A stretch of DNA of 64,000 nt from sequence record ON528738; one strand, given 5' to 3'. A program made the translations under genes and the position numbers. The stretch comes from Shigella phage ESh28. The notes beneath the pieces were generated by a model. That model saw nothing but the letters and a program-made list of their open reading frames with translations. It was not told where the DNA came from and did no database searches. Below are positions 26,345-57,528 of this stretch, piece by piece; position 1 is the first letter of the stretch; the number at the start of each line of letters is the position of its first letter.

Positions 26345-26380
26345 AGTTGTTTACATACTGATGAGGTAGTGATACTATTA
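26345..26380 (+). promoter_or_regulatory. T4 early promoter module
   Basis: -35 GTTTAC and a -10-like TACTAT about 18 bp downstream, with inverted repeat gatgaggta/tacctcatc around the -10. Confidence 0.6.
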
Positions 26381-26408
26381 CCTCATCAAAATTAATTAGG
26401 AAAATAAA

Positions 26409-26666
26409 ATGAAAACTTTCAAAGAGTTTGCTACAAAAACTACTATTACTGAATCTTCCCACGGTATGGAAGTAAAGCTTGGAATGGCTTTAGCTGAAGC
26501 TGAGCGTCTTTTCTCTCGTATTAAAGAACTTGCTGCTGCAGTCGATCCTTCGTCTTTTAAAGGAGACCAAACTAAAGTTAAAGCGCTTTTAGCATTATGC
26601 TCCGATGCGGGAGAAATCGCTAAAAATGGTTCTAAGATGAAGAAACGATTAGAAGATTTAAAATAA
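26409..26666 (+). CDS. internal protein with capsid-targeting N-terminus (ipI position)
   Basis: 85 aa; N-terminus MKTFKEFATKTTITE resembles the T4 internal-protein capsid-targeting sequence with an I-x-E prohead-protease site. Confidence 0.6.
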   Translation: MKTFKEFATKTTITESSHGMEVKLGMALAEAERLFSRIKELAAAVDPSSFKGDQTKVKALLALCSDAGEIAKNGSKMKKRLEDLK

Positions 26667-26674
26667 TTTCACAA

Positions 26675-26710
26675 AGTTGTTTACATAGGGTTTTAGTTGT
26701 GATACTATTA
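26675..26710 (+). promoter_or_regulatory. T4 early promoter module (direct repeat of the 26345 module)
   Basis: Same ttcacaaagttgTTTACAta...gtGATACTATtacc core, with a different inverted repeat (ataggg/ccctat). Confidence 0.6.
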
Positions 26711-26736
26711 CCCTATCAACTACTGAGGAGAATAAA

Positions 26737-26922
26737 ATGAAACGTTGTGAATTAATTCGAAATGTTGCTATTGCAATTTCTGCTTCCGCTTTTAGTTTTT
26801 CAATGTTTGTTGGATTTATATGCGGATTATTAACTACAGCAGAAAATGTGTTTTCACTTGTAGTAGCATTTTTAATTGGTTTAATCGCTATTGTTATGGA
26901 TAAAATTTCTAAAGGTGAATAA
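26737..26922 (+). CDS. small hydrophobic membrane protein
   Basis: 61 aa, two predicted hydrophobic helices; strong SD GAGGAG upstream. Confidence 0.6.
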   Translation: MKRCELIRNVAIAISASAFSFSMFVGFICGLLTTAENVFSLVVAFLIGLIAIVMDKISKGE

Positions 26923-27327
26923 ATGAATATTAACGAATATTATGTTTATGCTGGGGATTATGCAAATCCTTCTCATTTTGAAGGTAATTTAATACCTGAT
27001 AGAGTTTTTAATACTCCTTTTGAAGCGTGGAGTTGGGTTGAAAGTAAAAATGGATTTTCTTACCGTTATGTTGAAGTAACTGATTGGAAAGGAACTAAAT
27101 ATCCTAAAGAGCATTATTATATAGACCCATCTAAAGTAAATTTTCTTTTGTTCGCAGGCGATAATTACTATCCTTGCGGTGGATATGATGATTTGATTGC
27201 GTATGCTGAAACAGAAGATGAATTACGCCAAATTATTGAAGACAATAAATCAAAACGATTTGGCGATAGTTTCGACTGGTGGCAAATTGTAAATGCCAAT
27301 ACGCACACTATTGTCGATAAAGGTTAA
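26923..27327 (+). CDS. hypothetical protein
   Basis: 134-aa ORF, start abuts the previous stop; no recognised motif. Confidence 0.6.
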   Translation: MNINEYYVYAGDYANPSHFEGNLIPDRVFNTPFEAWSWVESKNGFSYRYVEVTDWKGTKYPKEHYYIDPSKVNFLLFAGDNYYPCGGYDDLIAYAETEDELRQIIEDNKSKRFGDSFDWWQIVNANTHTIVDKG

Positions 27328-27329
27328 TA

Positions 27330-27620
27330 ATGATTCTTTATGCGAAAGTATCATCTATTGAAAATGGATATAAATATGATCAAGAAGCAGCTAAAGCCTT
27401 GATTGATGATTATGGCATTTTAACATATTTTGAAGTTGAAAAGGTTTACATTGACCGTTCATCTTCTCAAGTTAAATTAGTGAAGGAAGACAGTAAATTT
27501 AATACAGTAAATTTTGATTTCTTTATTGAAACAGAAAAAGGTCCTCTTGAATATGATATTTTCAAGAATCCTTTGGGTCTTGAATGTATTAAATATACTT
27601 ACATTAATGCAGCGTGGTGA
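27330..27620 (+). CDS. hypothetical protein
   Basis: 96-aa ORF packed tightly after the previous gene. Confidence 0.55.
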   Translation: MILYAKVSSIENGYKYDQEAAKALIDDYGILTYFEVEKVYIDRSSSQVKLVKEDSKFNTVNFDFFIETEKGPLEYDIFKNPLGLECIKYTYINAAW

Positions 27621-27622
27621 AA

Positions 27623-28138
27623 ATGAATATTTGTTTAGGTACTACAATTCCGCAGGGCTACGTAATTGATGTCACTACCTGGGAAAATGATGGTGACAAC
27701 TATAAAACCAAAACATTGTTTGGCGTAGAAGAGCATGAAATCTTACAATTTCAGTATCTTTTAAAGAAGTTTAAAAGCAGATATTCTAGTACTAAAATTG
27801 AGCGCTATTGTGGTAATGGTTTGTTCAGCGAGCAATCTCTTTTTATTTATGAATACTTGGTTGAAGGACTGTTCTCAGATCAGCTTTATCCAGAATTCAT
27901 TAAAAAGGTCTTTCGCATAGAAGTTGACCTTGGTAATAAATCTGAAGAAGATGAAGAACGTGTATTTGACTTATTCTTTGTGAATGGTAATAAAGTGCTT
28001 GAAGGACTTATTAATATTTTAGGTAATGCTTCTGAGTATTATGATTATGATTTTTTGCGTGTAGTTGAGAGTGTTAAATACTCTTATATAGAAGAAGAAA
28101 TTGTTTTGCCGACCGTTAAAATGTTTAATTTGCTTTAA
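27623..28138 (+). CDS. hypothetical protein
   Basis: 171 aa from the first ATG (MNICLG...); the ORF-track start is a GTG three codons upstream. Confidence 0.55.
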   Translation: MNICLGTTIPQGYVIDVTTWENDGDNYKTKTLFGVEEHEILQFQYLLKKFKSRYSSTKIERYCGNGLFSEQSLFIYEYLVEGLFSDQLYPEFIKKVFRIEVDLGNKSEEDEERVFDLFFVNGNKVLEGLINILGNASEYYDYDFLRVVESVKYSYIEEEIVLPTVKMFNLL

Positions 28139-28224
28139 GAATTATTTGTTATTATTAACTCATATCGCACTGATTAATACCCTCTATCATCAAGGGTTCT
28201 TGCTTAAGAGCCTTTGTTAATAAT

Positions 28225-28297
28225 TGGGAATTAGCCAAGTTGGTAAGGCATAGCACTTTGACTGCTAGATGCAAAGGTTCGAGTCCTTTATTCCCAG
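28225..28297 (+). tRNA. tRNA-Gln (anticodon UUG)
   Basis: Cloverleaf: acceptor tgggaat/attccca, anticodon stem tagca/tgcta with loop cuUUGac, T-loop TTCGAGT. Confidence 0.85.
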
Positions 28298-29055: not shown

Positions 29056-29401
29056 GACAAGAAGCCGGGTCGCTACCGGCAAGTCGTCGGACTGATGTTC
29101 CCTGGGTAAGGACTGGCATTAACAAATCTTTACGATCGGTTAATGCCCCCTTACATCACAGCAGAAACGGCGCACCGAATTATCGATTCGAGGAAATATC
29201 TTTGCCGTAAGCCGAGTAGCGTTTTTGACGGAACGTTCGGATATGGTCGAGATATGGCCTTTTAAAAATATTGAGTAGCGTCAACTACTTAATAACCGGG
29301 TTCGAATCCCGGCGTTTCGTACAAACACTTGCCTTAGCAGGTGGAACCCCGACAAGGTTGCCGCAAGGCTTAGCCCCGACCGAAAGGTTGGGGCTTTTTA
29401 G
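29056..29401 (+). ncRNA. GC-rich structured non-coding region, candidate stable small RNA(s) with a tRNA-like acceptor/T-arm module
   Basis: About 345 nt without a credible ORF and clearly GC-richer than flanks; about 29229-29320 has acceptor pairing cggaacg/cgtttcg and a canonical T-arm ccggg-TTCGAAT-cccgg but no clean anticodon arm; ends in a terminator. Confidence 0.4.
29372..29401 (+). terminator. rho-independent terminator closing the tRNA/stable-RNA transcription unit
   Basis: Hairpin agccccgacc-gaaa-ggttggggct followed by TTTTT. Confidence 0.7.
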
Positions 29402-29489: not shown

Positions 29490-30053
29490 ATGAAAACCTA
29501 TGCCGAATTTTTAACCGAAGCAGCAAAATTACCATCTGAAGCAGATCTTACTAAAGTATTCTTCCAATTGGACCCAAAAGACCGTGGCGATTTTCTTAAG
29601 TGGAAAGCTAAAGCTATTGAAATGTATAACATCGATAATAGTTCTTTTACGATGAGTCAAGAAAATAAATTCAATAAAGCATTTTTCAAAATTTCTAAGA
29701 AACTGGCATCAGGCGCTCAGGTTCCTAAATCTGCCTTAGCTACTCCTGAACGCGCACCCGTCAAAATTTCTAAGAATATGTTTGACACTAAAAAATATGT
29801 TAATGCTTTGAATAAAGCTCTTGATGCATTGGATGATGCAAAGAAGGCAGCCCGCGATCTTCAAGACGTGTACACCGATTTTGATCGTAAAACTAAAGGT
29901 TCTATTTCAAATAGTGAACGCAATAGTGTAAGTGTTTATTCAGATAGCCTTGATGTTCTTGGCGATGCGTATACTGAAATTAAAAATCGTATTAACACTG
30001 CATCTAAGCTAAAAGCTGCTGCCGAAGCTATAATAACTAAACTGGGTAAATAA
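29490..30053 (+). CDS. internal protein III-like (capsid-targeted)
   Basis: 187 aa; N-terminus MKTYAEFLTEAAK matches the internal-protein capsid-targeting consensus (MKTYQEFIAE-like); Lys/Ala-rich. Confidence 0.6.
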   Translation: MKTYAEFLTEAAKLPSEADLTKVFFQLDPKDRGDFLKWKAKAIEMYNIDNSSFTMSQENKFNKAFFKISKKLASGAQVPKSALATPERAPVKISKNMFDTKKYVNALNKALDALDDAKKAARDLQDVYTDFDRKTKGSISNSERNSVSVYSDSLDVLGDAYTEIKNRINTASKLKAAAEAIITKLGK

Positions 30054-30087: not shown

Positions 30088-30217
30088 GTATCTAGGCCTT
30101 TCCAGGCCTCTCTAGACATCATTTAGTTTCTACCCTTTATAATATATTATCCTATCCTTTGATTTCCCCTCTCTGCCCTAGAATTCCCCAAAACCTTTAA
30201 AATTTTTTTTTTTCACA

Positions 30218-30256
30218 AAACTGTTTACAAGACTGTTCTTCCATGGTACTATACAA
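30218..30256 (+). promoter_or_regulatory. T4 early promoter module
   Basis: A/T-rich upstream tract, -35 GTTTAC, -10 region tgGTACTATACAACTATC shared with other modules in the window. Confidence 0.6.
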
Positions 30257-30295
30257 CTATCAACTACTGATACAGAAAACAACTTGGAGAATGAA

Positions 30296-30559
30296 ATGGA
30301 TAATTACGGCGAACTGTTCAACTTCTTTATGAAATGTGTTTCAGAAGATTTCGGTCGTACGGTGAATGATATTAAAGTTATCGGTCCTGATCATCCAATG
30401 TTTGAAACTTACGCAGTAATGGGTAATGAAGACGGTCAGTGGTATACTGTAAAGGTTGTGATTAACATGTTCACTGCTGAAGGTTATGTTAAACTGTCTT
30501 CTAAAGTTTACCATGATAACGACGAAATCGCAGAAGAATATTTCAATAATATGAAATAA
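30296..30559 (+). CDS. hypothetical protein
   Basis: 87 aa from the first in-frame ATG (MDNYGELFNFF...), SD GGAGA upstream; the ORF-track start is TTG. Confidence 0.6.
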   Translation: MDNYGELFNFFMKCVSEDFGRTVNDIKVIGPDHPMFETYAVMGNEDGQWYTVKVVINMFTAEGYVKLSSKVYHDNDEIAEEYFNNMK

Positions 30560-30661
30560 GTTTGCATAGGCTCATGATTGAGATATTATGAGCCTATAAT
30601 TTGATGATAGAATATAATAATTTTTACAGATTTTAAATCTTAATCAACCTAAGGAAATACT

Positions 30662-31255
30662 ATGAACACACTGAAGAAAATTGTTGAGTTTATTCGCACT
30701 AAACTTGGTTCTGCTATGGCTAAAAATCTATCTGTTGAAGAACAGTATACTGCTGCGGCAGCAAAACTACTTGATAAAATTAAAGACCTAAAAACTGCTT
30801 CTGTTAAATCTATTAATGAAGAAAAACGTATTCGTGAACTTATTGTCGAAAAGAATAAGCAGGCCGAATCAAAAGAGCGTGAAATTCGCAAGCTTCTTTC
30901 CGAAGGTCAAGATGTAACAATGCATGCTAAACTCGGTTTACTATATCGTCGAACAGCTGAGCAGTTGACTACTAAGGCTGACGGTTATGCTGAAATGCGA
31001 ATTGAAATCGCCAAGAAAGTAGTTGAGTTAGATGATGCTCGTCAAGAACTTGCGGTTAAATTGGAATATATCCGTGAAACTCGTGCAGCAAATGCCCTTG
31101 GAATTAGTACTGCTGATGATGTAGTTGAAATTGCAGCACTGACTAAGGTTGATATTGAAGATACCCTTGCTCGAGTTGAAACCTTTAACGGTAATATTTC
31201 TGGGGTTGAAACTACCTCTGCCGATGTTCAGGAATACATTAATTCTCTGAAATAA
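30662..31255 (+). CDS. coiled-coil protein (weak PspA/IM30-like pattern)
   Basis: 197 aa, heptad-rich charged sequence ([11 protein letters not shown]...[26 protein letters not shown]); SD AAGGAAA upstream. Confidence 0.6.
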
Positions 31256-33101: not shown

Positions 33102-33538
33102 AAACATTATCAGCTGGTATTATCTTCATGACAGAAGATAAAGATTTATTTATGGGTCGGGTTACTGGTTCTCGTAAGCCTGGAATGATGGCACATCGCT
33201 GGGATATTCCAAAGGGACGTGTAGAAAGTTCTGATTTGAATGCACTGGAAGCTGCAAAAAGAGAATGCTTAGAAGAGACCGGTTTTAGCAATTATAATCC
33301 AGACCTTCTAGAAGACCTAGGTGTATTTAAATATTCTAGTAATAAAGACTTACAGTTATTTTATTATACGATTCCAGTAGAGCATGAGATGTTCAGAAAT
33401 TGCTATTGTGAGTCTTATTTTGAAAATAAAGATGGCGTTATGATTCCAGAGATGGATGCTTTTGCTCTTATTCCTCGTACTCAGTGGCAATATGTGATGG
33501 GTCCTTCACTTTACCGAATAATGAACAACCTCTTTTAA
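33083..33538 (+). CDS. nudE: Nudix hydrolase NudE
   Basis: 151 aa; Nudix box GRVESSDLNALEAAKRECLEETGF; directly upstream of e as in T4 (an alternative start at 33098 has a better SD). Confidence 0.85.
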   Translation: MQEIKMKTLSAGIIFMTEDKDLFMGRVTGSRKPGMMAHRWDIPKGRVESSDLNALEAAKRECLEETGFSNYNPDLLEDLGVFKYSSNKDLQLFYYTIPVEHEMFRNCYCESYFENKDGVMIPEMDAFALIPRTQWQYVMGPSLYRIMNNLF

Positions 33539-34069
<531 letters not shown>

Positions 34070-34106
34070 AGTTGTTTACTTTCTCCTAGAATTGTGATAG
34101 TATATT
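34070..34106 (+). promoter_or_regulatory. T4 early promoter module upstream of denV
   Basis: -35 GTTTAC with a -10-like gtgaTAGTAT about 18 bp downstream. Confidence 0.5.
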
Positions 34107-34128
34107 CACAGTTACTTGGAGGGATAAA

Positions 34129-34545
34129 ATGACTCGTATTAATTTGACTTTAGTATCTGAACTTGCTGATCAACATTTAATCGCAGAATACCGTGAATTG
34201 CCGCGTGTTTTTGGTATAGTTCGTAAACATGTTGCAAATGGTAAGCGGGTTAAAGATTTTAAAATATCTTCCGAGTTTATTTTAGGTTCTGGTCATGTTA
34301 CTTTCTTTTACGATAAGTTAGAATTTTTGCGAAAGCGTCAATCAGACATTATAACGGAATGCTTAAAACGTGGGTTTAGTATAAAAGATACTGAAGTTCC
34401 TGACATCAGCGATATTCCAGTAGAATGGAAAAATGATTATAATCCATGCAAATCAGCTATTAAATTGAGTCAACAACGACTTGATGAAAAAATTTTAATG
34501 AAACCACATTGGTATAAGTATTACGGTAAAAATATTTACATTTAA
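34129..34545 (+). CDS. denV: endonuclease V (pyrimidine-dimer DNA glycosylase)
   Basis: 138 aa, [29 protein letters not shown]..., matches T4 endonuclease V as remembered. Confidence 0.95.
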
Positions 34546-36896: not shown

Positions 36897-37174
36897 TGGC
36901 TCAATTAAGTGCAGGGTTTGGTTATGAATATTATACTGCACCTCGTCGTGTATCTGCCGCTCCTAAGAAAATTCAAAGTCTTGATGACTTCCAAGAAGTA
37001 ATTCGTAATGCTTTCCAGGACTATGCGCGTTATCTTAAAGAAGATTCACAGGACTGCCTCGAAGAAGATGAAATTGCTTACTATGCGCAGCGTCTTGAAC
37101 AGCTCAAAAATCTACATGAGGTTCGTGCAGAAGTTTCAAAGTCTATGAATAAATTGATCAGATTTAAAGAATAA
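36896..37174 (+). CDS. hypothetical protein
   Basis: 92 aa from ATG at 36896 ([13 protein letters not shown]...), TAATG overlap with the previous stop. Confidence 0.55.
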
Positions 37175-37208
37175 CTGTTTACTTTTCCTCTTGACTGTGG
37201 TATAATTT
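37175..37208 (+). promoter_or_regulatory. sigma70-type early promoter upstream of regB
   Basis: -35 GTTTAC and extended -10 TGgTATAAT. Confidence 0.6.
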
Positions 37209-37233
37209 TTCTATCAGTTAAGAGGAGAATAAC

Positions 37234-37695
37234 ATGACTATCAATACAGAAGTTTTTATCCGTCGAAATAAGCTCCGTCGTCACTTTGAGTCGGAGTTTC
37301 GTCAAATTAACAATGAGATTCGTGAGGCATCAAAAGCAGCAGGGGTCTCATCGTTTCATCTAAAATATTCTCAGCATCTTCTTGATCGTGCAATTCAACG
37401 GGAGATTGATGAGACATATGTTTTTGAATTATTCCATAAAATAAAAGACCATGTTTTAGAAGTTAATGAATTCCTGAGTATGCCTCCACGTCCTGACATT
37501 GACGAGGATTTTATTGATGGGGTTGAATATCGTCCTGGACGTTTAGAAATCACAGATGGAAATCTTTGGCTTGGATTTACAGTTTGTAAACCTAATGCGA
37601 AGTTCAAAGACCCGTCACTTCAGTGCAGGATGGCAATTATCAATAGTCGCCGTTTACCAGGAAAGGCTTCTAAAGCAGTAATTAAAACTCAATGA
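37234..37695 (+). CDS. regB: endoribonuclease RegB
   Basis: 153 aa, MTINTEVFIRRNKLRRHFESEFRQINNEIREASK..., matches T4 RegB as remembered. Confidence 0.93.
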   Translation: MTINTEVFIRRNKLRRHFESEFRQINNEIREASKAAGVSSFHLKYSQHLLDRAIQREIDETYVFELFHKIKDHVLEVNEFLSMPPRPDIDEDFIDGVEYRPGRLEITDGNLWLGFTVCKPNAKFKDPSLQCRMAIINSRRLPGKASKAVIKTQ

Positions 37696-41342: not shown

Positions 41343-41366
41343 AGTCTCCTTCGGGAGACTTTTTTC
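41343..41366 (+). terminator. rho-independent terminator
   Basis: Hairpin agtctcc-ttcg-ggagact followed by TTTTTT. Confidence 0.7.
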
Positions 41367-41371
41367 ATTTT

Positions 41372-41408
41372 ACCGGTTTACTTTCCGTTTGAGCTGTGGT
41401 ACTATACA
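41372..41408 (+). promoter_or_regulatory. T4 early promoter module
   Basis: -35 GTTTAC and -10 region tgGTACTATACAACTATC. Confidence 0.6.
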
Positions 41409-41433
41409 ACTATCGGATAAAGAGGAGAACATC

Positions 41434-41622
41434 ATGAAAATTGAAGCACTCAATCAAGAAGGAAATATCTACGTCATCATTAATGGTGATTTTTTCGTCG
41501 ACATGGATGAAGTTACTAGTGAAGAACTTGTAGAACTTCTTAAGAAACGTTATAATATGTGTGATGAAGTTGCAACTCATATGGCGTGTGCAATATTCTC
41601 TCTTTCATATGTGGTGGAATAA
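41434..41622 (+). CDS. hypothetical protein
   Basis: 62 aa from ATG at 41434 ([16 protein letters not shown]...), SD AGAGGAG; the upstream part of the ORF-track reading is translated promoter sequence. Confidence 0.55.
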
Positions 41623-41804
41623 TGATTAGTATCGAACAAGCGGATAAGATTAAAGAATTGGTAGCTTTAATTCGTAAAGCAGACGAGGAGCGCATTAACT
41701 TTGCCTTATCAGGTATTGAAGAATTTGAAGCTAAAGTTGATAATGCTTTAGAAGCGTTAGATATGTTTCTTGATGAAATTATCGATCATAATACGAGAGT
41801 TTAA
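41622..41804 (+). CDS. hypothetical protein
   Basis: 60 aa from ATG at 41622 ([14 protein letters not shown]...), TAATG overlap. Confidence 0.5.
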   Translation: MISIEQADKIKELVALIRKADEERINFALSGIEEFEAKVDNALEALDMFLDEIIDHNTRV

Positions 41805-42000: not shown

Positions 42001-42163
42001 AAAGCAGATGTTTTTAATGAAACTAATTGAAGAATATGCTAATGCAGTTTCTGACTATGAATGTTCTTCTCGGGAAAGAGGTACAGCTTTCGCCAAAGAA
42101 GAAATGAAAATCATGGTTGATGCTCACACAAAGCTTCAGAATTTTATTGAAAACGTCATTTAA
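41990..42163 (+). CDS. hypothetical protein
   Basis: 57-aa ORF (MKTEKQMFLMKLIEEY...) found by reading the frame; overlaps the previous stop. Confidence 0.4.
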   Translation: MKTEKQMFLMKLIEEYANAVSDYECSSRERGTAFAKEEMKIMVDAHTKLQNFIENVI

Positions 42164-42198
42164 TGGTTTACAAGTTGGCAAGGTTATGGTATAGTAAT
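42164..42198 (+). promoter_or_regulatory. sigma70-type early promoter
   Basis: -35 GTTTAC and extended -10 TGgTATAGT, flanked by inverted repeat ttggca/tgccaa. Confidence 0.55.
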
Positions 42199-42327
42199 CT
42201 TGTCAACTGCCAAGGAGAAGAGAATGAAAGTTTTGTTTGTTGTGTATGTGATGATTCAATATAATTACCCAATGTTTACTTATAATCTGGTGAACAACAT
42301 TATTGATATTATTCAAAGGAGTATGTA

Positions 42328-45318: not shown

Positions 45319-45320
45319 TA

Positions 45321-45346
45321 GGGAGCCTTCGGGCTCCCTTTTTTAT
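45321..45346 (+). terminator. rho-independent terminator
   Basis: Hairpin gggagcc-ttcg-ggctccc followed by TTTTTT. Confidence 0.75.
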
Positions 45347-45364
45347 TTCAAAAATTTTTCACAA

Positions 45365-45400
45365 AGTTGTTTACAAGCATAAAGCTTTATGGTACTATAC
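45365..45400 (+). promoter_or_regulatory. T4 early promoter module
   Basis: ttcacaaagttGTTTACA...tgGTACTATACAACTATC, with palindrome cataaagctttatg between -35 and -10. Confidence 0.6.
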
Positions 45401-45432
45401 AACTATCAACTGATACGGATTTGGAGAATAAA

Positions 45433-46401
45433 ATGAAAACTGTAACTATCAATAAGGGTATCTACTTCGGTAAAGAAATCTCTGGAACTTTTGAGCTCTT
45501 AGGCGAATGGTTCCCAGATAATGCTCCGGTAGATGCACAAGGAGATGGTAAAGTTTTTGTTGAAATTGACGGTAAGCGTCGCGGTGTTTGGGTTTACAAA
45601 TCAGACATTTCATATGATGGTGTAAAAGTTGAAGAAGTTAAAGAATCATATGAAGATATGAAAACCCGCATTAATAAAAGATTTAATGTTATGGGAATGA
45701 TGACGAATGGTATTATTAACGGAAACATTCGTTCATTAATTATCTCTGGTGCGGCGGGTATTGGTAAAACGTATTCTTTAGATAAAGCTTTAAATAAAGC
45801 AAATGATATTGGATACATTGAATATAAAAGCATTAACGGTAAAATCTCTGGTATCGGTCTTTATGAACAGCTTTGGAATAATCGTGAAGAGAATTCTGTC
45901 CTTTTGATTGATGATGTGGATGTTTTCTCTGATATGGACATTCTTAATCTTCTAAAAGCTGCTCTGGACACTGGAGAGACCCGTAAAGTCTGCTGGAGCA
46001 CTGCATCTTCTTACTTAGAAGAAAAAGGCATTGAGCGTGAGTTTGAATTTAAAGGAACGATTGTTTTTATCACAAACGTTGACATTGACCGCGAATTAGA
46101 CCGTGGTACTAAACTTGCTCCGCATTTACAAGCATTAGTGTCCCGCTCAGTTTATTTGGATTTGGGTGTTCACACTAATGAAGAAATTATGGTCAGGGTT
46201 GAAGATGTTATTCTTTCAACTGACATGATGCAAAAGCGCGGTCTTTCTGATGAAGAAACTTATAAAGCATTATCATGGATGAAAGTCAATGTTAATCGTT
46301 TACGCAATGTTTCACTGCGTACTGCACTTTATCTTGCTGACTTTATTATGACCGACAAAAATGGTTGGGAAGAAATTGCTGAGGTTACTCTTCTGAAATA
46401 A
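45433..46401 (+). CDS. P-loop ATPase (AAA-like)
   Basis: 322 aa from ATG at 45433 (MKTVTINKG...); Walker A GAAGIGKT, Walker B VLLIDDVD. Confidence 0.7.
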   Translation: MKTVTINKGIYFGKEISGTFELLGEWFPDNAPVDAQGDGKVFVEIDGKRRGVWVYKSDISYDGVKVEEVKESYEDMKTRINKRFNVMGMMTNGIINGNIRSLIISGAAGIGKTYSLDKALNKANDIGYIEYKSINGKISGIGLYEQLWNNREENSVLLIDDVDVFSDMDILNLLKAALDTGETRKVCWSTASSYLEEKGIEREFEFKGTIVFITNVDIDRELDRGTKLAPHLQALVSRSVYLDLGVHTNEEIMVRVEDVILSTDMMQKRGLSDEETYKALSWMKVNVNRLRNVSLRTALYLADFIMTDKNGWEEIAEVTLLK

Positions 46402-46499: not shown

Positions 46500-46805
46500 A
46501 TGATGTTATACTCAAAGGCTCGTGAAATTTATGAAACTAAAATTAAAGACGCGGTTCATCAGTTCGCAACGACAATGCGTTGGACAAATGACTGGGAATA
46601 CTCCAAGAATCATAAGAAGCCCTTGGTGACAAGAAAGGCTCATATATTAGTGTTAATAGACCGTGAGCAGATTAAAGCCCGAGAAGCCCTCCAGAATCAT
46701 AAAAAGGCTGCCTTTGAATGGTTTATGGATAACACTGCTCCTGAGACTAAGAAAGCAGTGAGCGCTTGGTTCAGTGGAAAAAATTGTGAAAGAAGTTTCT
46801 TTTAG
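46500..46805 (+). CDS. hypothetical protein
   Basis: About 101 aa from ATG at 46500 with SD GGAGG upstream. Confidence 0.5.
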   Translation: MMLYSKAREIYETKIKDAVHQFATTMRWTNDWEYSKNHKKPLVTRKAHILVLIDREQIKAREALQNHKKAAFEWFMDNTAPETKKAVSAWFSGKNCERSFF

Positions 46806-46840
46806 TTGTTTACAAGACCGTTCCTCTGTGGTACTATACA
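46804..46840 (+). promoter_or_regulatory. T4 early promoter module
   Basis: GTTTACA...tgGTACTATACAACTATC with inverted repeat gttcctc/gaggaac; overlaps the stop of the previous gene. Confidence 0.6.
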
Positions 46841-46865
46841 ACTATCAACTACGGAGGAACAGAAA

Positions 46866-47393
46866 ATGAATGCTAAAGATATTTTCAACTTGGTAAACTA
46901 CAATGATGGTAAATTTAAATCTGAAGCTCAAAGCAAGTTCTTTAATGATGTCTCAATCGGTGGTGAAATCACGGTTGATGGAGGACAAATTTACAAATCC
47001 CGTTGGAATTGGATCGTTATTATCGATGAGATTGGTATTGTAGAAATTTACAAGAATACGAATAAAAATCGTACATTACACTGGTCTCGTGATACTAACG
47101 AACAGTACAAAAAGGATAAAGCATCTAAATTATCTCGTGTAACTCAAGAAGATATTGAGTTCATCAAGAAAGATATTTTGATGTATGATAACTTAATTGC
47201 TGAAGAGCAAGCTGTTATTGATAAATTTGACGAGATTAAAGCTTCTCGTGAAATTCCTGATTTTATGAAAGAATCAGTAAATGAACGATACACTCTCATT
47301 TCAGAGCGTATTGAAACTTACAAAAAGCAAAGAGCTGAACGCCAAAATACTCTTCGGAAGTTTGAAGAACGGTTAAAGACGGTACTCGCATAA
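46866..47393 (+). CDS. hypothetical protein
   Basis: 175 aa from ATG at 46866 (MNAKDIFNLVNYNDG...), SD GGAGGAA. Confidence 0.6.
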   Translation: MNAKDIFNLVNYNDGKFKSEAQSKFFNDVSIGGEITVDGGQIYKSRWNWIVIIDEIGIVEIYKNTNKNRTLHWSRDTNEQYKKDKASKLSRVTQEDIEFIKKDILMYDNLIAEEQAVIDKFDEIKASREIPDFMKESVNERYTLISERIETYKKQRAERQNTLRKFEERLKTVLA

Positions 47394-48761: not shown

Positions 48762-49790
48762 ATGAAAACTCGTTCTCAAATTGAAGATATAGTTCGTAAT
48801 GCCAGCTATACTCGTGATGTTATGACATTTTTGTGCCAAAATAATTTAGACCCTGATAAAGTTAATCGTGATATTCATCACTTTAAGTATACGAATAGCA
48901 GTGAATGGGTGCGTAATTTTAGTAAAGCAGGGTATATTACGCAAATGACTGCTCGTGAACAGCTCACCGATTTCTGTAAAACTATTGATTATAAAAATCC
49001 TTTATTTGTTCAAGGCGTTGGTCAGAGTAAGGTTGATTTATCAACAGGATTTTTTAATCCAAATCATTATCGTCTTGAATGGAGATTTATTGCTCTATTC
49101 CGTAAACAATTAAAGCAAATTTTGTCTACAGCTAGTCGATTAAAAGGTTCTAATATTAACTTAAAGAATCTGAAATTTGATGGTTATACTCTTCAAATGG
49201 AAGTAAGACCATCTAAAGAAAATAATAGAACTGCACGAATTAGCTTTAAACCTAATACAAAAAATTCTCTTTCAATTTGTGAATGTCTTAAATCACAGTT
49301 GACAGAAGCATTTAAGTATATGGATGTTGTTGCTGCTGTTCAATCTAAGATTTTACCTCGTTTTGAACGATTTAAGTTAGATACAACATCATATGAACTT
49401 GATATGATCGTTTCATTTAAATACGATTTTTTGAGAAAGGACGAAGTCCCGCAAGAGAAAAAGCAGGAAGTGCAAGATAACTTAAATTTAAATTTATCCA
49501 ATTACTTATCAAACGATCCTAAATTTTGGATGTATAGCTCAAGCAATATAGATGCATGTAAACTTAATAAAGTGAGTTTTCTTCCTACTGAAAATTCAAA
49601 TTTTAAACCTGTAGAAAAATGGCACGCTGACGCGATTGAGAAGTCTCTTAAGGCAGTAGATGATGAACTCGTTAAAGCGACCAATGAAGTGCTAGAAGCT
49701 GAAAAGGTGTTAGAACAAGCTCAGTCAAGGGTTCAAAATCTGACAAAGCAACGTTCTAAACTGAACAATGCACTAAATGCACTGAACTAG
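48762..49790 (+). CDS. hypothetical protein with C-terminal coiled-coil tail (array member 2)
   Basis: 342 aa; N-terminus MKTRSQIEDIV; C-terminus ...LEAEKVLEQAQSRVQNLTKQRSKLNNALNALN. Confidence 0.65.
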   Translation: MKTRSQIEDIVRNASYTRDVMTFLCQNNLDPDKVNRDIHHFKYTNSSEWVRNFSKAGYITQMTAREQLTDFCKTIDYKNPLFVQGVGQSKVDLSTGFFNPNHYRLEWRFIALFRKQLKQILSTASRLKGSNINLKNLKFDGYTLQMEVRPSKENNRTARISFKPNTKNSLSICECLKSQLTEAFKYMDVVAAVQSKILPRFERFKLDTTSYELDMIVSFKYDFLRKDEVPQEKKQEVQDNLNLNLSNYLSNDPKFWMYSSSNIDACKLNKVSFLPTENSNFKPVEKWHADAIEKSLKAVDDELVKATNEVLEAEKVLEQAQSRVQNLTKQRSKLNNALNALN

Positions 49791-49821
49791 TTTACTTTGC
49801 CACAAGGATGTGGTATAATGT
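49788..49821 (+). promoter_or_regulatory. sigma70-type early promoter
   Basis: -35 GTTTAC and extended -10 TGgTATAAT. Confidence 0.55.
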
Positions 49822-49847
49822 TCTTACTTTCTACTGAGGAGATTAAT

Positions 49848-50849
49848 ATGACTCGTAACGAATATATCAAATCATTCAATAGCGTTATTGATGATAAAGC
49901 TATACCGATGTTTGGTCAAAATATCGTTCTTTCTATTATCAATCAATGGCTCAATAGTGTTGATGCAAGTATTGTTTCTTCTACTAAATTTATTCATGAA
50001 ATTCGTAAAATTTCTAGCCGTGTAGATAAAGATCTTATCAAGAAAACCTTTAAAGAGTCTCGTCTTCTTTCATATTTGGTTAATCGGGATATTCTTGGTA
50101 ATTTTGGGAAAGAAATTAAACGAACCAAAGATGTAGTAGGATATAATTGGTTCGGTGATGTTAATTCTTATCATCTTAATAATAAAGAAGACCCTGAGAA
50201 TATTTTTACTCGTCGTTGGATTAGTAATTTCAGACTTTTCAAAGGACAGATTCTAAAATCAGCTTCTAAATTATGTTATGGCGATTATCGTCAAATTCAT
50301 CCTTTGGCTTCTGATATGATTATCGTAAAAGAATATGAGCTTGATGAAAATAAAGTAGCTATTTTTGTGAATTATGGATTTTTTACACCAGAAACTAACC
50401 AAAAGAACATCAATAAATTTTTCTCAATTGCTAGCACTATAACTCGTCAATTAGAGACCGCATTACTTTGTATGGAAACAGTAGAAAATATTCATACATA
50501 TCCTTTTAAGAATATATGCGGTTGGGAAGGATATAAAATTGTAGTTAGTCTTCGTGAAGTGAAATGTACTTATTCACCTACTAGTAAAGAAATTTACCAA
50601 CAAAAATGTGATGAAATTGTGAATACTCCTAAAGAAGAAACTACCCTTGAGGAACTAATGGAATGTCTTGACGATTCACCTGAACCGATAGAAATTCGTC
50701 CAGAAGTTATTGCACTAGAAAAAGCTTATAAAGAAGCTCTAGAAATTTCTAATAAAGCACAGAAAGAATATGAGAAGGCTAAAAGGATTTGGGAAGAATC
50801 TGTTAATCGCCTGGATCGTCTTGAACAAGCTTTACAGTTAATTAAGTAA
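49848..50849 (+). CDS. hypothetical protein with C-terminal coiled-coil tail (array member 3)
   Basis: 333 aa from ATG at 49848 (MTRNEYIKSF...), SD GAGGAG; C-terminus ...EYEKAKRIWEESVNRLDRLEQALQLIK. Confidence 0.6.
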   Translation: MTRNEYIKSFNSVIDDKAIPMFGQNIVLSIINQWLNSVDASIVSSTKFIHEIRKISSRVDKDLIKKTFKESRLLSYLVNRDILGNFGKEIKRTKDVVGYNWFGDVNSYHLNNKEDPENIFTRRWISNFRLFKGQILKSASKLCYGDYRQIHPLASDMIIVKEYELDENKVAIFVNYGFFTPETNQKNINKFFSIASTITRQLETALLCMETVENIHTYPFKNICGWEGYKIVVSLREVKCTYSPTSKEIYQQKCDEIVNTPKEETTLEELMECLDDSPEPIEIRPEVIALEKAYKEALEISNKAQKEYEKAKRIWEESVNRLDRLEQALQLIK

Positions 50850-53355: not shown

Positions 53356-53478
53356 AACCTTGGTGGGCGGCTAGATGGGAAATTGTAGAGCCAGAGCCGG
53401 AAGAACCGGTTTACACTGATGAAGAAACAGTATATAATGAACCAACGATAAATGACTTAATTGATATGGAGATGGGAC

Positions 53479-53964
53479 ATGATTACAGTAGATAAGTGGT
53501 TTAGAATTAATCGTGCTGATAAAGAGCTATGTAATTACTGGCCGGAACTTAGTGCAGGTACTGTCTTTAAAGTTCGTGAACTTGCAAAAGAATGCGAAGA
53601 TGATATAGAACCTGATACTGGAATTATTGAAATTGAACTTTCTGGTGGAAAGATTATTAACATCTACGATAAGCCAACTGCGTATTGGTGCTTGTGGAAT
53701 ACTGAATCAGTAGAAAATGGTGAAATCGAGGAAGTTGTAGAGAGAACTAATCAAGTTGTTCAGAAGCCTAAAGCCGATTTTCAAGGTGAACGTATTCCAT
53801 ACGCATTAGCTAAATTAGCTGCGCAAGAAAATAACGATGGCTATGAAGGTAACCTGATGCAAGCTGCCGCAGAATACATTGAATGGCTTGAAAATCAAAT
53901 TTCTTTTTCTGACCAAAAGATTCGGCAATATAAGCGATTGAATCAAATGTTTTACAATACTTGA
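53479..53964 (+). CDS. pin: Pin, inhibitor of host Lon protease
   Basis: 161 aa from MITVDKWFRIN...; position between nrdC and gene 49 as in T4. Confidence 0.7.
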   Translation: MITVDKWFRINRADKELCNYWPELSAGTVFKVRELAKECEDDIEPDTGIIEIELSGGKIINIYDKPTAYWCLWNTESVENGEIEEVVERTNQVVQKPKADFQGERIPYALAKLAAQENNDGYEGNLMQAAAEYIEWLENQISFSDQKIRQYKRLNQMFYNT

Positions 53965-53975
53965 AAATAATAAAT

Positions 53976-54005
53976 ACCCTTATCTATTTAAGGTAAGGGT
54001 TTATT
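53976..54005 (+). other. stem-loop immediately upstream of the gene 49 start
   Basis: Inverted repeat accctta...taagggt followed by a T-rich run directly before the gene 49 ATG; possible terminator or translational control hairpin. Confidence 0.45.
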
Positions 54006-54479
54006 ATGTTATTGACTGGCAAATTATATAAAGAAGAAAAACAGAAATTTTATGATGCACAAAACGGTAAATGCTTAATTTGCCAACGAGAACTAAATCC
54101 TGATGTTCAAGCTAATCACCTCGACCATGACCATGAATTAAATGGACCAAAAGCAGGAAAGGTACGTGGATTGCTTTGTAATCTCTGCAATGCCGCAGAA
54201 GGTCAAATGAAACATAAATTTAATCGTTCTGGCTTAAAGGGGCAAGGTGTTGATTATCTTGAATGGTTAGAAAATTTACTTACTTATTTAAAATCCGATT
54301 ACACCCAAAATAATATTCACCCTAACTTTGTTGGAGATAAATCAAAGGAATTTTCTCGTTTAGGAAAAGAGGAAATGATGGCCGAGATGCTTCAAAGAGG
54401 ATTTGAATATAATGAATCTGACACCAAAACACAATTAATAGCTTCATTTAAGAAGCAGCTTAGAAAGAGTTTAAAATGA
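54006..54479 (+). CDS. 49: endonuclease VII (Holliday junction resolvase)
   Basis: 157 aa, MLLTGKLYKEEKQKFYDAQNGKCLICQRELNPDVQANHLDHDHELNGP...; matches T4 gp49 as remembered. Confidence 0.95.
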   Translation: MLLTGKLYKEEKQKFYDAQNGKCLICQRELNPDVQANHLDHDHELNGPKAGKVRGLLCNLCNAAEGQMKHKFNRSGLKGQGVDYLEWLENLLTYLKSDYTQNNIHPNFVGDKSKEFSRLGKEEMMAEMLQRGFEYNESDTKTQLIASFKKQLRKSLK

Positions 54480-56293
54480 CAATTGAAAAAGAAATTGAAG
54501 GATTGATTCATAAAACTAATAAAGACCTTTTGAACGAGAATGCTAATAAAGATTCTCGTGTTTTTCCAACTCAACGGGACCTTATGGCTGGTATTGTGTC
54601 TAAACACATTGCCAAAAATATGGTCCCGTCTTTTATTATGAAAGCGCATGAAAGCGGAATTATTCATTTCCATGATATTGATTATTCCCCTGCTCTTCCA
54701 TTTACTAATTGTTGTTTAGTAGATTTAAAAGGAATGCTTGAAAACGGATTTAAGCTAGGTAATGCACAGATTGAAACTCCTAAATCAATTGGAGTTGCTA
54801 CTGCAATTATGGCACAAATTACTGCGCAAGTTGCTTCTCACCAATACGGCGGAACGACTTTTGCGAATGTAGATAAAGTACTTTCTCCTTATGTTAAACG
54901 CACCTATGCAAAACATATTGAGGATGCAGAAAAATGGCAAATCGCTGATGCGTTGAATTATGCTCAATCTAAAACAGAAAAAGATGTATACGATGCATTC
55001 CAAGCTTATGAATATGAAGTAAATACTCTCTTTAGTTCAAACGGACAGACTCCTTTTGTAACAATTACATTTGGTACGGGAACTGACTGGACTGAACGAA
55101 TGATTCAGAAAGCAATTCTGAAAAATCGTATTAAAGGTCTTGGTCGTGATGGGATAACTCCTATTTTCCCTAAGCTTGTTATGTTCGTCGAAGAAGGTGT
55201 TAATCTTTATAAAGACGATCCGAACTATGATATTAAGCAACTTGCTCTAGAGTGCGCAAGTAAAAGAATGTATCCTGATATTATTTCAGCTAAGAACAAT
55301 AAAGCTATCACTGGCTCATCTATTCCTGTTTCTCCAATGGGTTGTCGTAGTTTCTTGAGCGTGTGGAAAGATTCGACTGGTAATGAAATTCTTGATGGAC
55401 GTAATAATCTTGGCGTTGTAACACTGAATCTTCCTCGTATTGCGTTAGATTCTTATATTGGAACACAGTTCAATGAACAGAAATTTATCGAATTGTTCAA
55501 TGAACGAATGGATTTATGTTTTGAAGCTTTGATGTGTAGAATTAGTTCCTTAAAAGGAGTTAAAGCGACTGTTGCTCCTATTCTTTACCAAGAAGGTGCA
55601 TTTGGGGTTCGTCTTAAACCTGATGACGATATAATTGAGTTATTTAAAAACGGTAGAAGTTCAGTGTCTCTAGGATACATTGGTATTCACGAATTGAATA
55701 TTCTTGTCGGTCGTGATATTGGACAGGAAATTTTAACTAAAATGAATGCTCGTCTTAAACGGTGGACTGAAAGAACCGGATTTGCTTTTAGCTTGTATTC
55801 TACTCCTGCTGAAAACCTTTGTTATCGCTTCTGTAAACTTGATACAGAAAAATACGGAAGTGTAAAGGATGTTACTGATAAAGGATGGTACACTAATAGT
55901 TTCCATGTTTCAGTAGAAGAAAATATTACTCCGTTTGAAAAGATTTCTCGTGAAGCGCCATATCATTTCATTGCGACAGGTGGTCACATTTCTTATGTTG
56001 AACTTCCTGATATGAAAAATAATCTAAAAGGTCTTGAGGCCGTATGGGATTATGCTGCACAGCATTTAGATTATTTTGGTGTTAACATGCCAGTAGATAA
56101 GTGTTTTACATGCGGAAGTACCCATGAAATGACTCCTACTGAAAACGGATTTGTTTGTTCTATTTGTGGAGAAACTGATCCTAAAAAGATGAATACCATA
56201 AGAAGAACATGTGGTTATTTGGGAAATCCGAACGAGCGCGGATTTAATCTAGGTAAAAATAAAGAAATCATGCATAGGGTTAAACACCAATGA
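54476..56293 (+). CDS. nrdD: anaerobic ribonucleoside-triphosphate reductase NrdD
   Basis: 605 aa, uninterrupted; C-terminal Zn ribbon and glycyl radical motif RRTCGYLG. Confidence 0.93.
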   Translation: MTIEKEIEGLIHKTNKDLLNENANKDSRVFPTQRDLMAGIVSKHIAKNMVPSFIMKAHESGIIHFHDIDYSPALPFTNCCLVDLKGMLENGFKLGNAQIETPKSIGVATAIMAQITAQVASHQYGGTTFANVDKVLSPYVKRTYAKHIEDAEKWQIADALNYAQSKTEKDVYDAFQAYEYEVNTLFSSNGQTPFVTITFGTGTDWTERMIQKAILKNRIKGLGRDGITPIFPKLVMFVEEGVNLYKDDPNYDIKQLALECASKRMYPDIISAKNNKAITGSSIPVSPMGCRSFLSVWKDSTGNEILDGRNNLGVVTLNLPRIALDSYIGTQFNEQKFIELFNERMDLCFEALMCRISSLKGVKATVAPILYQEGAFGVRLKPDDDIIELFKNGRSSVSLGYIGIHELNILVGRDIGQEILTKMNARLKRWTERTGFAFSLYSTPAENLCYRFCKLDTEKYGSVKDVTDKGWYTNSFHVSVEENITPFEKISREAPYHFIATGGHISYVELPDMKNNLKGLEAVWDYAAQHLDYFGVNMPVDKCFTCGSTHEMTPTENGFVCSICGETDPKKMNTIRRTCGYLGNPNERGFNLGKNKEIMHRVKHQ

Positions 56294-56760
56294 ATTATGA
56301 TAGATTTTATCCTTGTGATTTTGTGAATGGCCCTGGTTGCAGGGTCGTTCTTTTCGTCACAGGTTGTTTGCATAAATGCGAAGGGTGTTATAATAAATCA
56401 ACATGGAATGCTAGAAATGGTATTCCATTCACTGGAGAGACACTAGAACAATTAATTGAATGTTTGAATAATGATTATATAGAAGGATTAACTATAACCG
56501 GAGGAGACCCTCTCTATCCTGACAATCGAGATGTTATTCATTGCATTGTTCAAACAGTAAAAAATCTTTATCCCAATAAAAGCATTTGGTTGTGGACAGG
56601 ATATAAGTTTGAAGATATTAAACAACTAGAAATGCTTAAATATGTTGATGTTATTATTGATGGGAAGTATGAGAAAAATCTTCCGACTAAAAAGCTGTGG
56701 CGAGGATCAGATAATCAGCGACTTTGGTCAAATACCGATGGGGTGTGGAAACATGATTAA
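56290..56760 (+). CDS. nrdG: anaerobic RNR activating protein NrdG (radical SAM)
   Basis: 156 aa; radical-SAM cluster CLHKCEGC; ATGA overlap with nrdD. Confidence 0.9.
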   Translation: MNYDRFYPCDFVNGPGCRVVLFVTGCLHKCEGCYNKSTWNARNGIPFTGETLEQLIECLNNDYIEGLTITGGDPLYPDNRDVIHCIVQTVKNLYPNKSIWLWTGYKFEDIKQLEMLKYVDVIIDGKYEKNLPTKKLWRGSDNQRLWSNTDGVWKHD

Positions 56761-56874
56761 ATTGAATTATATTATGGATACTATAAATGATATGATTTTT
56801 CATTTTGGTCCAGAATTTTATTCACAGTATAGTTTAGTGCTTATCAATGCTTGGTTAATTAATTAAGGGTAAAT

Positions 56875-57087
56875 ATGTATAAATTTCGTAAAGGTTTAGC
56901 TGATTTTCTTACAACTGTAACATTCTTTCTGTTTATGGCAGTTGGAGCTATTTTCCTTATTCCTTTTATTGTTATATTTTTCGTAATTAGTTTAATTTCT
57001 CCAGAAAAAGGACTATCTTCTAGCGAGTTCAATGAGCGTCTGGATAAAATTACTAACAAGCTGAATGCTGCTCTTAGTAAGGAATAG
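56875..57087 (+). CDS. small membrane protein
   Basis: 70 aa; hydrophobic helix TVTFFLFMAVGAIFLIPFIVIFFVISLI. Confidence 0.55.
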   Translation: MYKFRKGLADFLTTVTFFLFMAVGAIFLIPFIVIFFVISLISPEKGLSSSEFNERLDKITNKLNAALSKE

Positions 57088-57089
57088 TT

Positions 57090-57398
57090 GTGAAACAAAA
57101 TAAGATTGAAGTCTATGGAATTCCAGATGAAGTAGGTCGTTGTCCTGGATGTCAATCAGTTACAAAACTTCTAAAGGAGCTCAATGCTCCTTTTACTTTC
57201 TATAAAGTTCTTACAAATAATGGTAAGATTGAGTATGATCGTCCACTGATTGTATCTCTTGCTAAACGTGCTGGATTCACATCTCTTAACATTCGTTATC
57301 CAGTCATTTTCATTAATGATTCTAGACAAAAGAACATTAAACACTTCAAAGAAACTCTCATTTCACTTGGATATGATAGAGATATCATAGAAGACTAA
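57090..57398 (+). CDS. nrdH: glutaredoxin-like protein NrdH
   Basis: 102 aa; CPGC redox motif; adjacent to nrdG/nrdD. Confidence 0.8.
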   Translation: MKQNKIEVYGIPDEVGRCPGCQSVTKLLKELNAPFTFYKVLTNNGKIEYDRPLIVSLAKRAGFTSLNIRYPVIFINDSRQKNIKHFKETLISLGYDRDIIED

Positions 57399-57402
57399 GA
57401 CG

Positions 57403-57426
57403 GGCCCTCTGGGCCTTTCTTTCTTA
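57403..57426 (+). terminator. rho-independent terminator
   Basis: Hairpin gggccc-tct-gggcc followed by a T-rich run. Confidence 0.65.
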
Positions 57427-57492
57427 CATTCTGTATATTACCATTCTAAGCTATCGTTCCCTTCTTATCATTCCCTAAAATAATTTTCACAA

Positions 57493-57528
57493 AGTTGTTT
57501 ACAACAAGTTCAAACCGTGGTATTATTA
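57493..57528 (+). promoter_or_regulatory. T4 early promoter module
   Basis: ttcacaaagttGTTTACA with -10 tgGTATTAT about 18 bp downstream. Confidence 0.55.

Follow-up and report, generated by a model that had tools for sequence, protein, structure and literature searches.

T4-type early promoter cassettes with variable spacer–leader hairpins in the early region of Shigella phage ESh28

Early promoter modules in a T4-like genome

A 64,000-nucleotide stretch of the genome of Shigella phage ESh28 (sequence record ON528738; hereafter the window) carries a repeated intergenic element that had been described, from its letters alone, as a family of early promoter modules with variable inverted repeats (hereafter the original prediction). 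Eleven modules lie on the + strand, with the G of their GTTTAC hexamer at positions 26349, 26679, 30223, 34074, 37177, 41376, 42166, 45369, 46808, 49790 and 57497, in each case (11/11) 2–5 nt downstream of the coordinate originally predicted. They precede, in this order, an internal-head-protein gene at the ipI locus, trna.4, e.8, denV, regB, mobD.5, mobD.2, nrdC.10, nrdC.8, nrdC.4 and 55.6. More than 1200 phage records matched the window (1218 by megablast), mostly Escherichia and Shigella Tequatrovirus genomes at ~95–96% identity, and by these matches the window is that of a Tequatrovirus, a T4 relative with ~93–97% identity to T4. Window positions 15851–64000 are collinear with T4 85000–34621 in reverse orientation, at 78–99% identity per block (mostly 90–98%). 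Positions 1–26000 hold late structural genes on the opposite strand and contain none of the 11 modules.

A search of the whole window for GTTTAC-N13-15-TGn-TAnnnT returned exactly these 11 sites; every one is on the + strand, and the - strand has no match. One register is common to all 11 modules, GTTTAC-N15-TGn-TAnnnT, with 17 bp from TTTACx to the -10 hexamer; 300 dinucleotide-preserving shuffles yielded 0.16 matches on average and never more than 2. The -10 hexamer reads TACTAT in six modules, TATAAT in two, and TAGTAT, TATAGT and TATTAT in one each, and the extended -10 element is TGG in eight modules and TGA in three. In a position-weight-matrix scan the modules scored 31.6–50.5 bits in-sample, with 12.2 bits for the next-best match in the window and shuffle maxima of 5–15 bits; leave-one-out scores ranged from 14.8 to 39.9 bits, the weakest modules (37177 and 49790, ~15 bits) only equalling the top of the shuffle range. 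The 17-mer GGTACTATACAACTATC is found exactly four times in the window versus 0.24 expected. A generic sigma-70 consensus scan was non-discriminating (77 and 95 matches versus 80 and 87 expected), and only the T4-specific pattern discriminates. The fixed-register matrix misses promoters with a 16-bp spacer, for example the T4 denV promoter at 65413; a relaxed spacer pattern revealed no additional promoters in the window. Scanning IMG/VR with TGTTTAC-N15-TGGTAYWAT gave mostly single chance matches in unrelated contigs, and these were not used.

The conserved columns of the module alignment comprise an upstream A-rich block, the -35 hexamer, TGn with the -10 hexamer, a block reading CTATCAAC 3′ of the -10, and the Shine-Dalgarno region. 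The sequence ttcacaaagtt, described as frequent upstream of the -35, was seen at four to five modules, where it puts A-rich bases at -40 to -44; the other modules are A/T-rich upstream. Transcription would start ~7 nt 3′ of the -10, and a Shine-Dalgarno sequence (mostly GGAG) and an ATG follow 19–37 nt past this putative start at every module (19–24 nt at most of them). To call the modules near-identical, as the original prediction did, is an overstatement: in-register identity over 80 nt averages 50% (range 35–74%), and the longest exact runs common between modules measure 18–33 nt. The family resemblance would stem from selection on polymerase contact points and not from recent copying.

Promoters of this kind have been under study in T4 since the 1980s. 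The T4 early consensus consists of GTTTAC at -36 to -31, A-rich bases at -40 to -44 that resemble an UP element, and a sigma-70 -10 hexamer (PMC1524935). The term “uber” UP/-35/TGn/-10 promoters has been applied to the T4 early class, which wins out over host promoters and is stimulated when Alt ADP-ribosylates the alpha subunit (PMC2988021). The regB promoter of T4 is termed “a typical early promoter”, and GGAG is the RegB target typical of early messages (PMC3014915). The modules of the window carry the same elements, namely GTTTAC (with the T at -33), the 17-bp spacer, TGn, TAnnnT and an A/T-rich UP element. They too occupy intergenic positions and precede an early gene in the direction of its transcription, and the late-gene half of the window has none. 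The T4 GenBank records annotate no promoter features. The module matrix run on T4 found a counterpart with the same motif at the equivalent locus for all 11 modules. Compared with the T4 early promoters (P_E class), consensus, orientation and placement before early genes are the same, and nothing essential differs apart from a few point differences and the fact that the T4 ipIII promoter drives denV here. The early-promoter assignment of the original prediction is thus supported by the T4-relative genome, the match of the motif to the published T4 early consensus and the identity of the early genes downstream.

The modules also share their layout with the published PeSL elements, in which promoter, stem-loop, Shine-Dalgarno sequence and ATG recur as an intergenic cassette (PMC2839356, PMC4122927). 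The PST/T4 PeSL consensus TTTACW-N17-TAYWAT fits nine of the 11 modules, and RB49-type G/C-rich PeSL stems are absent from them. The modules are members of this already-known family of T4 early promoter or PeSL-like cassettes in a new T4 relative. Each very probably constitutes a compact early expression cassette, made of a T4-type early promoter and a short leader. Host sigma-70 RNA polymerase would recognise the A-rich proximal UP element, GTTTAC, the 17-bp spacer, TGn and TAnnnT, leaving spacer and leader free to vary; in most modules these two would then have evolved mutual complementarity.

Two other assignments of the shared sequence carry a vanishingly small probability, namely that it is coding (as an N-terminal extension containing GTIQLS or as a leader peptide) or that it represents a MotA-dependent middle or gp55-dependent late promoter. 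At four modules (30223, 41376, 45369 and 46808) a GTIQLS-containing extension is indeed open in frame 5′ of the true ATG, three of the four having an upstream TTG, and an open reading frame (ORF) caller that accepts TTG would start genes at 41389, 45367 and 46806. However, seven of the 11 modules contain an in-frame upstream stop, TTG is the sole start available to the extensions, and the T4 homologues align from the downstream ATG, which is preceded by a Shine-Dalgarno sequence. The coding reading was ruled out on these grounds, in agreement with the earlier description of the extensions as fake. As to the middle and late classes, neither a MotA box (TGCTTnA, judged against (a/t)(a/t)(a/t)TGCTTtA centred at -30) nor the late promoter sequence TATAAATA overlaps any module, and both classes were ruled out as well. 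With the cassettes recognised, a number of gene starts can be corrected, and the early transcription units of this new T4-like genome are marked.

Further promoter-like sequences were noted in the window. The MotA-box middle-promoter pattern TGCTTnA-N11-13-TAnnnT occurs 14 times versus 4.5 expected, with sites at 24865, 28131, 38866, 54388 and 60747 (+) among them, and none of the 14 overlaps a module. GTTTAC-N17-TATAAT without TGn lies inside 49.1 (53409–53438, upstream of pin) and inside 55.5 (57936–57965, upstream of 55.4), both on the + strand, and TTTTAC...TGT-TATAGT lies inside gene 47 (62923–62952, +), where it is conserved in T4 at 35698. The matches inside 49.1, 55.5 and gene 47 could be weaker internal promoters or chance.

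Hairpins joining promoter spacer and leader

Each module was folded from the -35 to the ATG, and its stability was expressed as a z score versus shuffles. The variable palindromes are real, as five modules reached z <= -3.3 and two more z ~ -2. Every hairpin takes its 5′ arm from the promoter spacer and its 3′ arm from sequence 3′ of the -10. Two layouts can be distinguished: short stems that enclose or overlap the -10 (ipI locus, trna.4 and mobD.2) and long stems that reach the Shine-Dalgarno sequence (denV, regB and nrdC.8). All cassettes and hairpins described below are on the + strand.

Among the modules with short stems, the ipI-locus cassette occupies 26324..26411 (GTTTAC at 26349, -10 TACTAT at 26373–26378; T4 counterpart at 73939), and its hairpin at 26359–26388 encloses TGn and the -10 (z = -4.67). 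The ORF that follows (26409–26666) matches phrog_3499, an internal head protein, and takes the place of T4 ipI. The trna.4 cassette (26654..26739; GTTTAC at 26679, -10 TACTAT at 26703–26708; T4 counterpart at 73572) folds into the hairpin ATAGGGT/ACCCTAT at 26685–26716 (z = -1.96). In the mobD.2 cassette (42141..42226; GTTTAC at 42166, TGG-TATAGT; T4 counterpart at 57990), a hairpin at 42173–42208 surrounds the -10 (z = -3.84). The nrdC.4 cassette (49765..49850; GTTTAC at 49790, TGG-TATAAT; T4 counterpart at 50973) contains a short hairpin at 49798–49815, which lies inside the spacer, overlaps TGn and the -10 and is followed by T-rich DNA (z = -2.13); it was flagged as terminator-like by the terminator scan.

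The long stems are found in three cassettes. At denV (34049..34131; GTTTAC at 34074, -10 TAGTAT; T4 counterpart at 66498) the hairpin extends over 34080–34124, and in its outer stem UCUCC of the spacer pairs with the Shine-Dalgarno sequence GGAGG (z = -3.32). At regB (37152..37236; GTTTAC at 37177, TGG-TATAAT; T4 counterpart at 62797) the entire spacer pairs with the Shine-Dalgarno region of regB in a 15-bp hairpin at 37183–37229 (z = -5.18). At nrdC.8 (46783..46868; GTTTAC at 46808, TGG-TACTATACAACTATC; T4 counterpart at 53943) the spacer sequence GUUCCUCUG pairs with CGGAGGAAC, which contains the Shine-Dalgarno sequence, in a hairpin at 46820–46860 (z = -3.73).

Folding of the remaining four modules gave no significant embedded hairpin. 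These are the cassettes of e.8 (30198..30298; GTTTAC at 30223, TGG-TACTATACAACTATC; T4 counterpart at 70696; z = +0.44), mobD.5 (41343..41436; GTTTAC at 41376; T4 counterpart at 58780; z = -0.80), nrdC.10 (45320..45435; GTTTAC at 45369; T4 counterpart at 55384; z = +1.04) and 55.6 (57402..57559; GTTTAC at 57497, TGG-TATTAT; T4 counterpart at 41706; z = +0.41). The nrdC.10 spacer contains a small palindrome, ATAAAGCTTTAT. An intrinsic terminator lies directly 5′ of the mobD.5 module (41343–41360 plus T run), another 5′ of the nrdC.10 module (45320–45339 plus T run), and a terminator-like hairpin 5′ of the 55.6 module (57402–57416). In addition, a degenerate twelfth module overlooked by the original prediction precedes e.6 (30535..30664), with GTTTGC at 30560, no TGn and a -10 reading TATTAT; a 13-bp hairpin at 30566–30597 surrounds its -10. 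This module corresponds to a weak T4 site at 70359, which in T4 lies upstream of e.7.

Comparison of orthologous modules revealed that pairing is retained while the paired sequences change. The regB stem is kept by compensatory changes in at least four clades, with 5′ and 3′ arms reading UUUUCCUCUUGACUG and CAGUUAAGAGGAGAA in the T4 type, UUCUCCUCUAGUUG and CAACUAGAGGAGAA in the RB69 type, UCUCCUGUAAG and CUUACAGGAGA in a third clade and AUCUCCUGUAG and CUACAGGAGAU in a fourth. RNAalifold recovers the helix between spacer and Shine-Dalgarno sequence with three pairs changed on both sides; as MAFFT shifts the T4 row of this alignment by one column, the pair counts of the tool understate the covariation, and the manual register shows more. 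Compensatory change was also seen at the denV, nrdC.8 and trna.4 stems. Orthologues of the trna.4 stem read GGGT/ACCC, GGGCT/AGCCC, GGGATA/TATCCC and GGACTA/TAGTCC. RB69-type orthologues of mobD.2 have a different stem, TTGGTAGGACTA/TAGTCCTATCAA, and a distant clade retains pairing with the Shine-Dalgarno sequence at nrdC.8 with another sequence, UCUCCAGUAG/CUACUGGAGG. A module reading GTTTACATCTCCTGTAG...CTACAGGAGA precedes denV in T4 (65413) and regB in other clades; thus, the pair of anti-Shine-Dalgarno and Shine-Dalgarno sequences moves between genes as a unit.

The complementarity was quantified on 121 distinct modules in 38 spacer clusters, taken from the window, T4, RB69 and T4-like contigs of IMG/VR, all on the coding strand. 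Pairing of a spacer with its own leader beat pairing with the leaders of other clusters beyond 99% of the null in 8/38 clusters (0.38 expected) and beyond 95% of the null in 13/38 (1.9 expected; Wilcoxon p = 7e-5), with the limitation that the 38 clusters may be related by descent and cannot be taken as wholly independent. The anti-Shine-Dalgarno tetramer CTCC or CCTC was found in 11/38 spacers, always at spacer position 3–5, where 1.65 were expected and the maximum in 2000 shuffles was 6; the complement control gave 2. The variable palindromes are under selection, and the promoter spacer complements the sequence 3′ of the -10.

Palindromes over the -10 and spacer could in principle act as DNA, either as cruciforms or as operators for a phage or host protein, for example in the shut-off of early promoters. 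A repressor bound at this position would block RNA polymerase, and how early promoters are shut off is, according to the literature, not fully understood (PMC3014915). Still, the arm sequences vary from module to module and from orthologue to orthologue without loss of pairing, no common half-site is found, and many stems extend 30–40 nt downstream to the Shine-Dalgarno sequence. Moreover, on the sense strand the stems contain 11 G-U pairs versus two A-C mismatches, counted by a scoring that treats both transition mismatches alike, or ~8 versus 2 as independent events, so that the excess is only suggestive. Its direction points to a coding-strand RNA. We regard an action at the DNA level as very improbable, and the operator was rejected as a candidate, with the variable arms and the prevalence of G-U over A-C as grounds.

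A possible role of the spacer arm in read-through RNA

The local transcript lacks the 5′ arm of the hairpin, as this arm is the promoter's own spacer and lies upstream of any possible start. We infer from this geometry that only RNA entering from an upstream unit would fold into the hairpins, which would thereby tie translation of a gene to its own promoter. A comparable arrangement is experimentally established for T4 e, soc, 49 and I-TevI, where a hairpin that sequesters the ribosome-binding site is combined with an internal late promoter (PMC3014915). As in the modules, the 5′ arm of these hairpins is upstream of the local start, and only transcripts from upstream promoters hide the Shine-Dalgarno sequence or AUG. 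The difference resides in the promoter class: the internal late promoters of e, soc, 49 and I-TevI delay expression, whereas the early promoters of the window would confine translation to the immediate-early period. Two of these hairpins are conserved in the window on the + strand and served as positive controls, namely that of e (33538–33580, z = -4.3), which carries two TATAAATA late promoters at 33541 and 33554, and that of 49 (53967–54007, z = -4.1).

In the helices of regB, denV and nrdC.8 (z -3.3 to -5.2) the Shine-Dalgarno sequence is fully paired. Its predicted unpaired probability was 0.22 in RNA from the gene's own start versus 0.00 in read-through RNA for regB, 0.34 versus 0.01 for denV, and 0.41 versus 0.00 for nrdC.8. 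The terminator scan detected no intrinsic terminator on the + strand between the modules at 34074 and 37177. At these three genes the read-through hairpin would bury the Shine-Dalgarno sequence, and the gene's own early promoter would then be required for translation and probably also for RegB cleavage at GGAG. Secondary structure is reported to shield GGAG from RegB (PMC3014915), and by extension the hairpin would shield the RegB site in polycistronic RNA. In its most general form the proposal sees in the palindromes an RNA device that is systematic and covarying across T-even early cassettes, in which the spacer serves, at a fixed position just 3′ of the -35, as an anti-Shine-Dalgarno arm that locks the ribosome-binding site of read-through RNA and shields GGAG from RegB, with regB, denV and nrdC.8 translated only from their own immediate-early promoter. 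This general form is put forward tentatively, as possible rather than probable.

For PeSLs the published function of the stem-loop is termination or attenuation, and the embedded stem-loops of the window could accordingly stop incoming polymerase instead of acting on translation or RNA stability. A PeSL stem-loop of RB49/phi1 reduced lacZ expression to a degree comparable with that caused by a strong terminator, and PeSL stem-loops are most often located between -35 and -10 or overlap the -10 (PMC2839356). Within the window, the nrdC.4 spacer hairpin with its T-rich flank and terminator-like score fits such a function. So does the observation that the three modules with an intrinsic terminator just upstream (41376, 45369 and 57497) lack an embedded hairpin. 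Conversely, the stems of these T-even modules are AT-rich, and apart from 49798–49815 none is followed by a T run or matched by the terminator scan. The long stems run exactly into the Shine-Dalgarno sequence and show covariation with it, features that a terminator can do without, and the anti-Shine-Dalgarno tetramer is ~sevenfold enriched at a fixed spacer position. With T runs missing from all embedded stems except 49798–49815, termination is ranked second and considered unlikely as the general function of the stems. Measured against the PeSL cassette, seven of the 11 modules carry an embedded hairpin (z <= -1.96) and three others a terminator hairpin directly upstream, yet by sequence criteria the embedded stems outside nrdC.4 do not qualify as terminators.

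Several observations weigh against reading each module as a promoter with a functional spacer–leader hairpin. The e.8, mobD.5, nrdC.10 and 55.6 modules have no significant hairpin. The hairpins at the ipI locus, trna.4 and mobD.2 are clear of the Shine-Dalgarno sequence, and sequestration thus covers a subset of modules only. Three of the four modules that lack an embedded hairpin have a terminator just upstream, e.8 being the fourth, and this alternation fits an insulation role. The corresponding trade-off, however, which in the window is 3/3 versus 7/8, was not significant in the 38 clusters (1/5 versus 9/33).

No published account of an anti-Shine-Dalgarno hairpin at early promoters, those of regB, denV and nrdC.8 included, was found in the searchable literature, older subscription literature excepted, and the anti-Shine-Dalgarno spacer with its covariation is possibly a modest addition to a known family. 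If the spacer lock proved true, it would explain how a cassette can be moved to a new site and not take on the expression of the genes next to it. If functional, a single 60-nt element would serve as promoter, translational insulator and recombination joint. This could help to account for two properties, namely that toxic early products such as RegB are tightly timed and that T-even genomes tolerate cassette exchange.

Proposed cassette exchange and differences from T4

The modules had also been proposed as substrates of homologous recombination across the early region. This is reasonable and had already been published as the PeSL model: a role of early promoters in shuffling was reported by Arbiol in 2010 and by Comeau in 2014, including the T4/PST pair and the internal-protein loci (PMC2839356, PMC4122927). 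As in the window, PeSL stem-loops often lie between -35 and -10 or over the -10. PeSL cassettes are linked to insertions and deletions at internal-protein loci and in plastic regions. In RB49/phi1 mini-circles have been shown to form (PMC2839356), and the model has also been used for T4/PST (PMC4122927). The modules at 26349 and 26679 are the most alike pair of the window (86% identity over 69 nt, including 33 nt of exact match that take in the last codons and stop of the upstream genes), and as direct repeats 330 bp apart they flank an internal-protein gene different from that of T4. PeSL-like elements at T-even internal-protein loci were reportedly described by Repoila in 1994, as cited in later PeSL papers.

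Other joints coincide with modules as well. The ipIII and ipII genes are lost, and homology to T4 breaks at 34118/34125, inside module 34074 and between its -10 and Shine-Dalgarno sequence. T4 e.7 and the T4 promoter before e.6 (69967) are missing from the window, a loss located beside the degenerate module at 30560. Among phages with nrdC.10 at least 99% identical, this gene is preceded by any of three promoter modules, two of them entirely different from that of the window (45335–45440), indicating that the promoter module itself has been swapped. Among ten close relatives, 8/51 homology breakpoints fell into module intervals versus 2.3 expected (p = 0.0017; four modules involved), an enrichment calculated against a uniform null although breakpoints generally favour intergenic DNA. 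As a side effect of their conservation, the 18–33 nt blocks at cassette boundaries would offer T4 recombination short homologies for gene swaps, notably of internal-protein genes. The recombination pattern of the modules matches the published PeSL model as well as what had earlier been seen at the T-even internal-protein loci, and adds no new principle.

A stronger form of this view holds that the modules are primarily mobile or recombinogenic cassettes, subject to PeSL shuffling and mini-circle formation, whose similarity is kept for gene exchange while promoter activity is secondary. The enriched breakpoints, the internal-protein gene between direct repeats, the joint inside module 34074 and the exchanged nrdC.10 module speak in its favour. 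Against this stand the conservation of the modules, which falls on positions contacted by RNA polymerase while spacers and leaders diverge, and the length of the exact repeats, 18–33 nt being short for efficient homologous recombination in T4. Likewise, breakpoints among close relatives involve four of the 11 modules only, and most differences from T4 lie at homing endonuclease genes (segB, mobB, mobC, mobD and I-TevII) or at non-module sites, which also weighs against the exchange part of the cassette reading. A primarily recombinogenic nature thus appears somewhat unlikely, and the modules are treated here as early promoter cassettes in the first place. Two reservations attach to the earlier claim of recombination substrates: the modules are not near-identical, and although gene content at modules does differ from T4 (ipI locus, ipIII/ipII and e.7), most gene-content differences are found elsewhere.

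In total, the T4 genes without a counterpart in the window are segB, mobB, mobC, mobD, ipI, ipII, ipIII, e.7, tk.1 and 49.3, and the nrdD intron bearing I-TevII, present in T4, is missing. Unusually divergent from T4 are tk.4, nrdC.3, tk.2 and denV, with 54–78% amino-acid identity.

Two insertions relative to T4 contain ORFs of unknown function. A 174-aa ORF at 27614–28138 (+; PHROG 2290) fills an insertion of ~520 bp between trna.2 and the tRNA genes. A 187-aa ORF at 29490–30053 (+; PHROG 2280) lies in an insertion of ~660 bp just past a strong terminator (29372–29395) and has no early-promoter module of its own; its leader, MKTYAEFLTEAA, presumably resembles the leaders of T4 internal proteins. 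In the late half of the window, at least five tandem 24-nt units, 65–71% identical, were found at 20731–20874 on the - strand. By collinearity with T4 these repeats fall into gene 5, and they probably encode the octapeptide repeats of the gp5 beta-helix.

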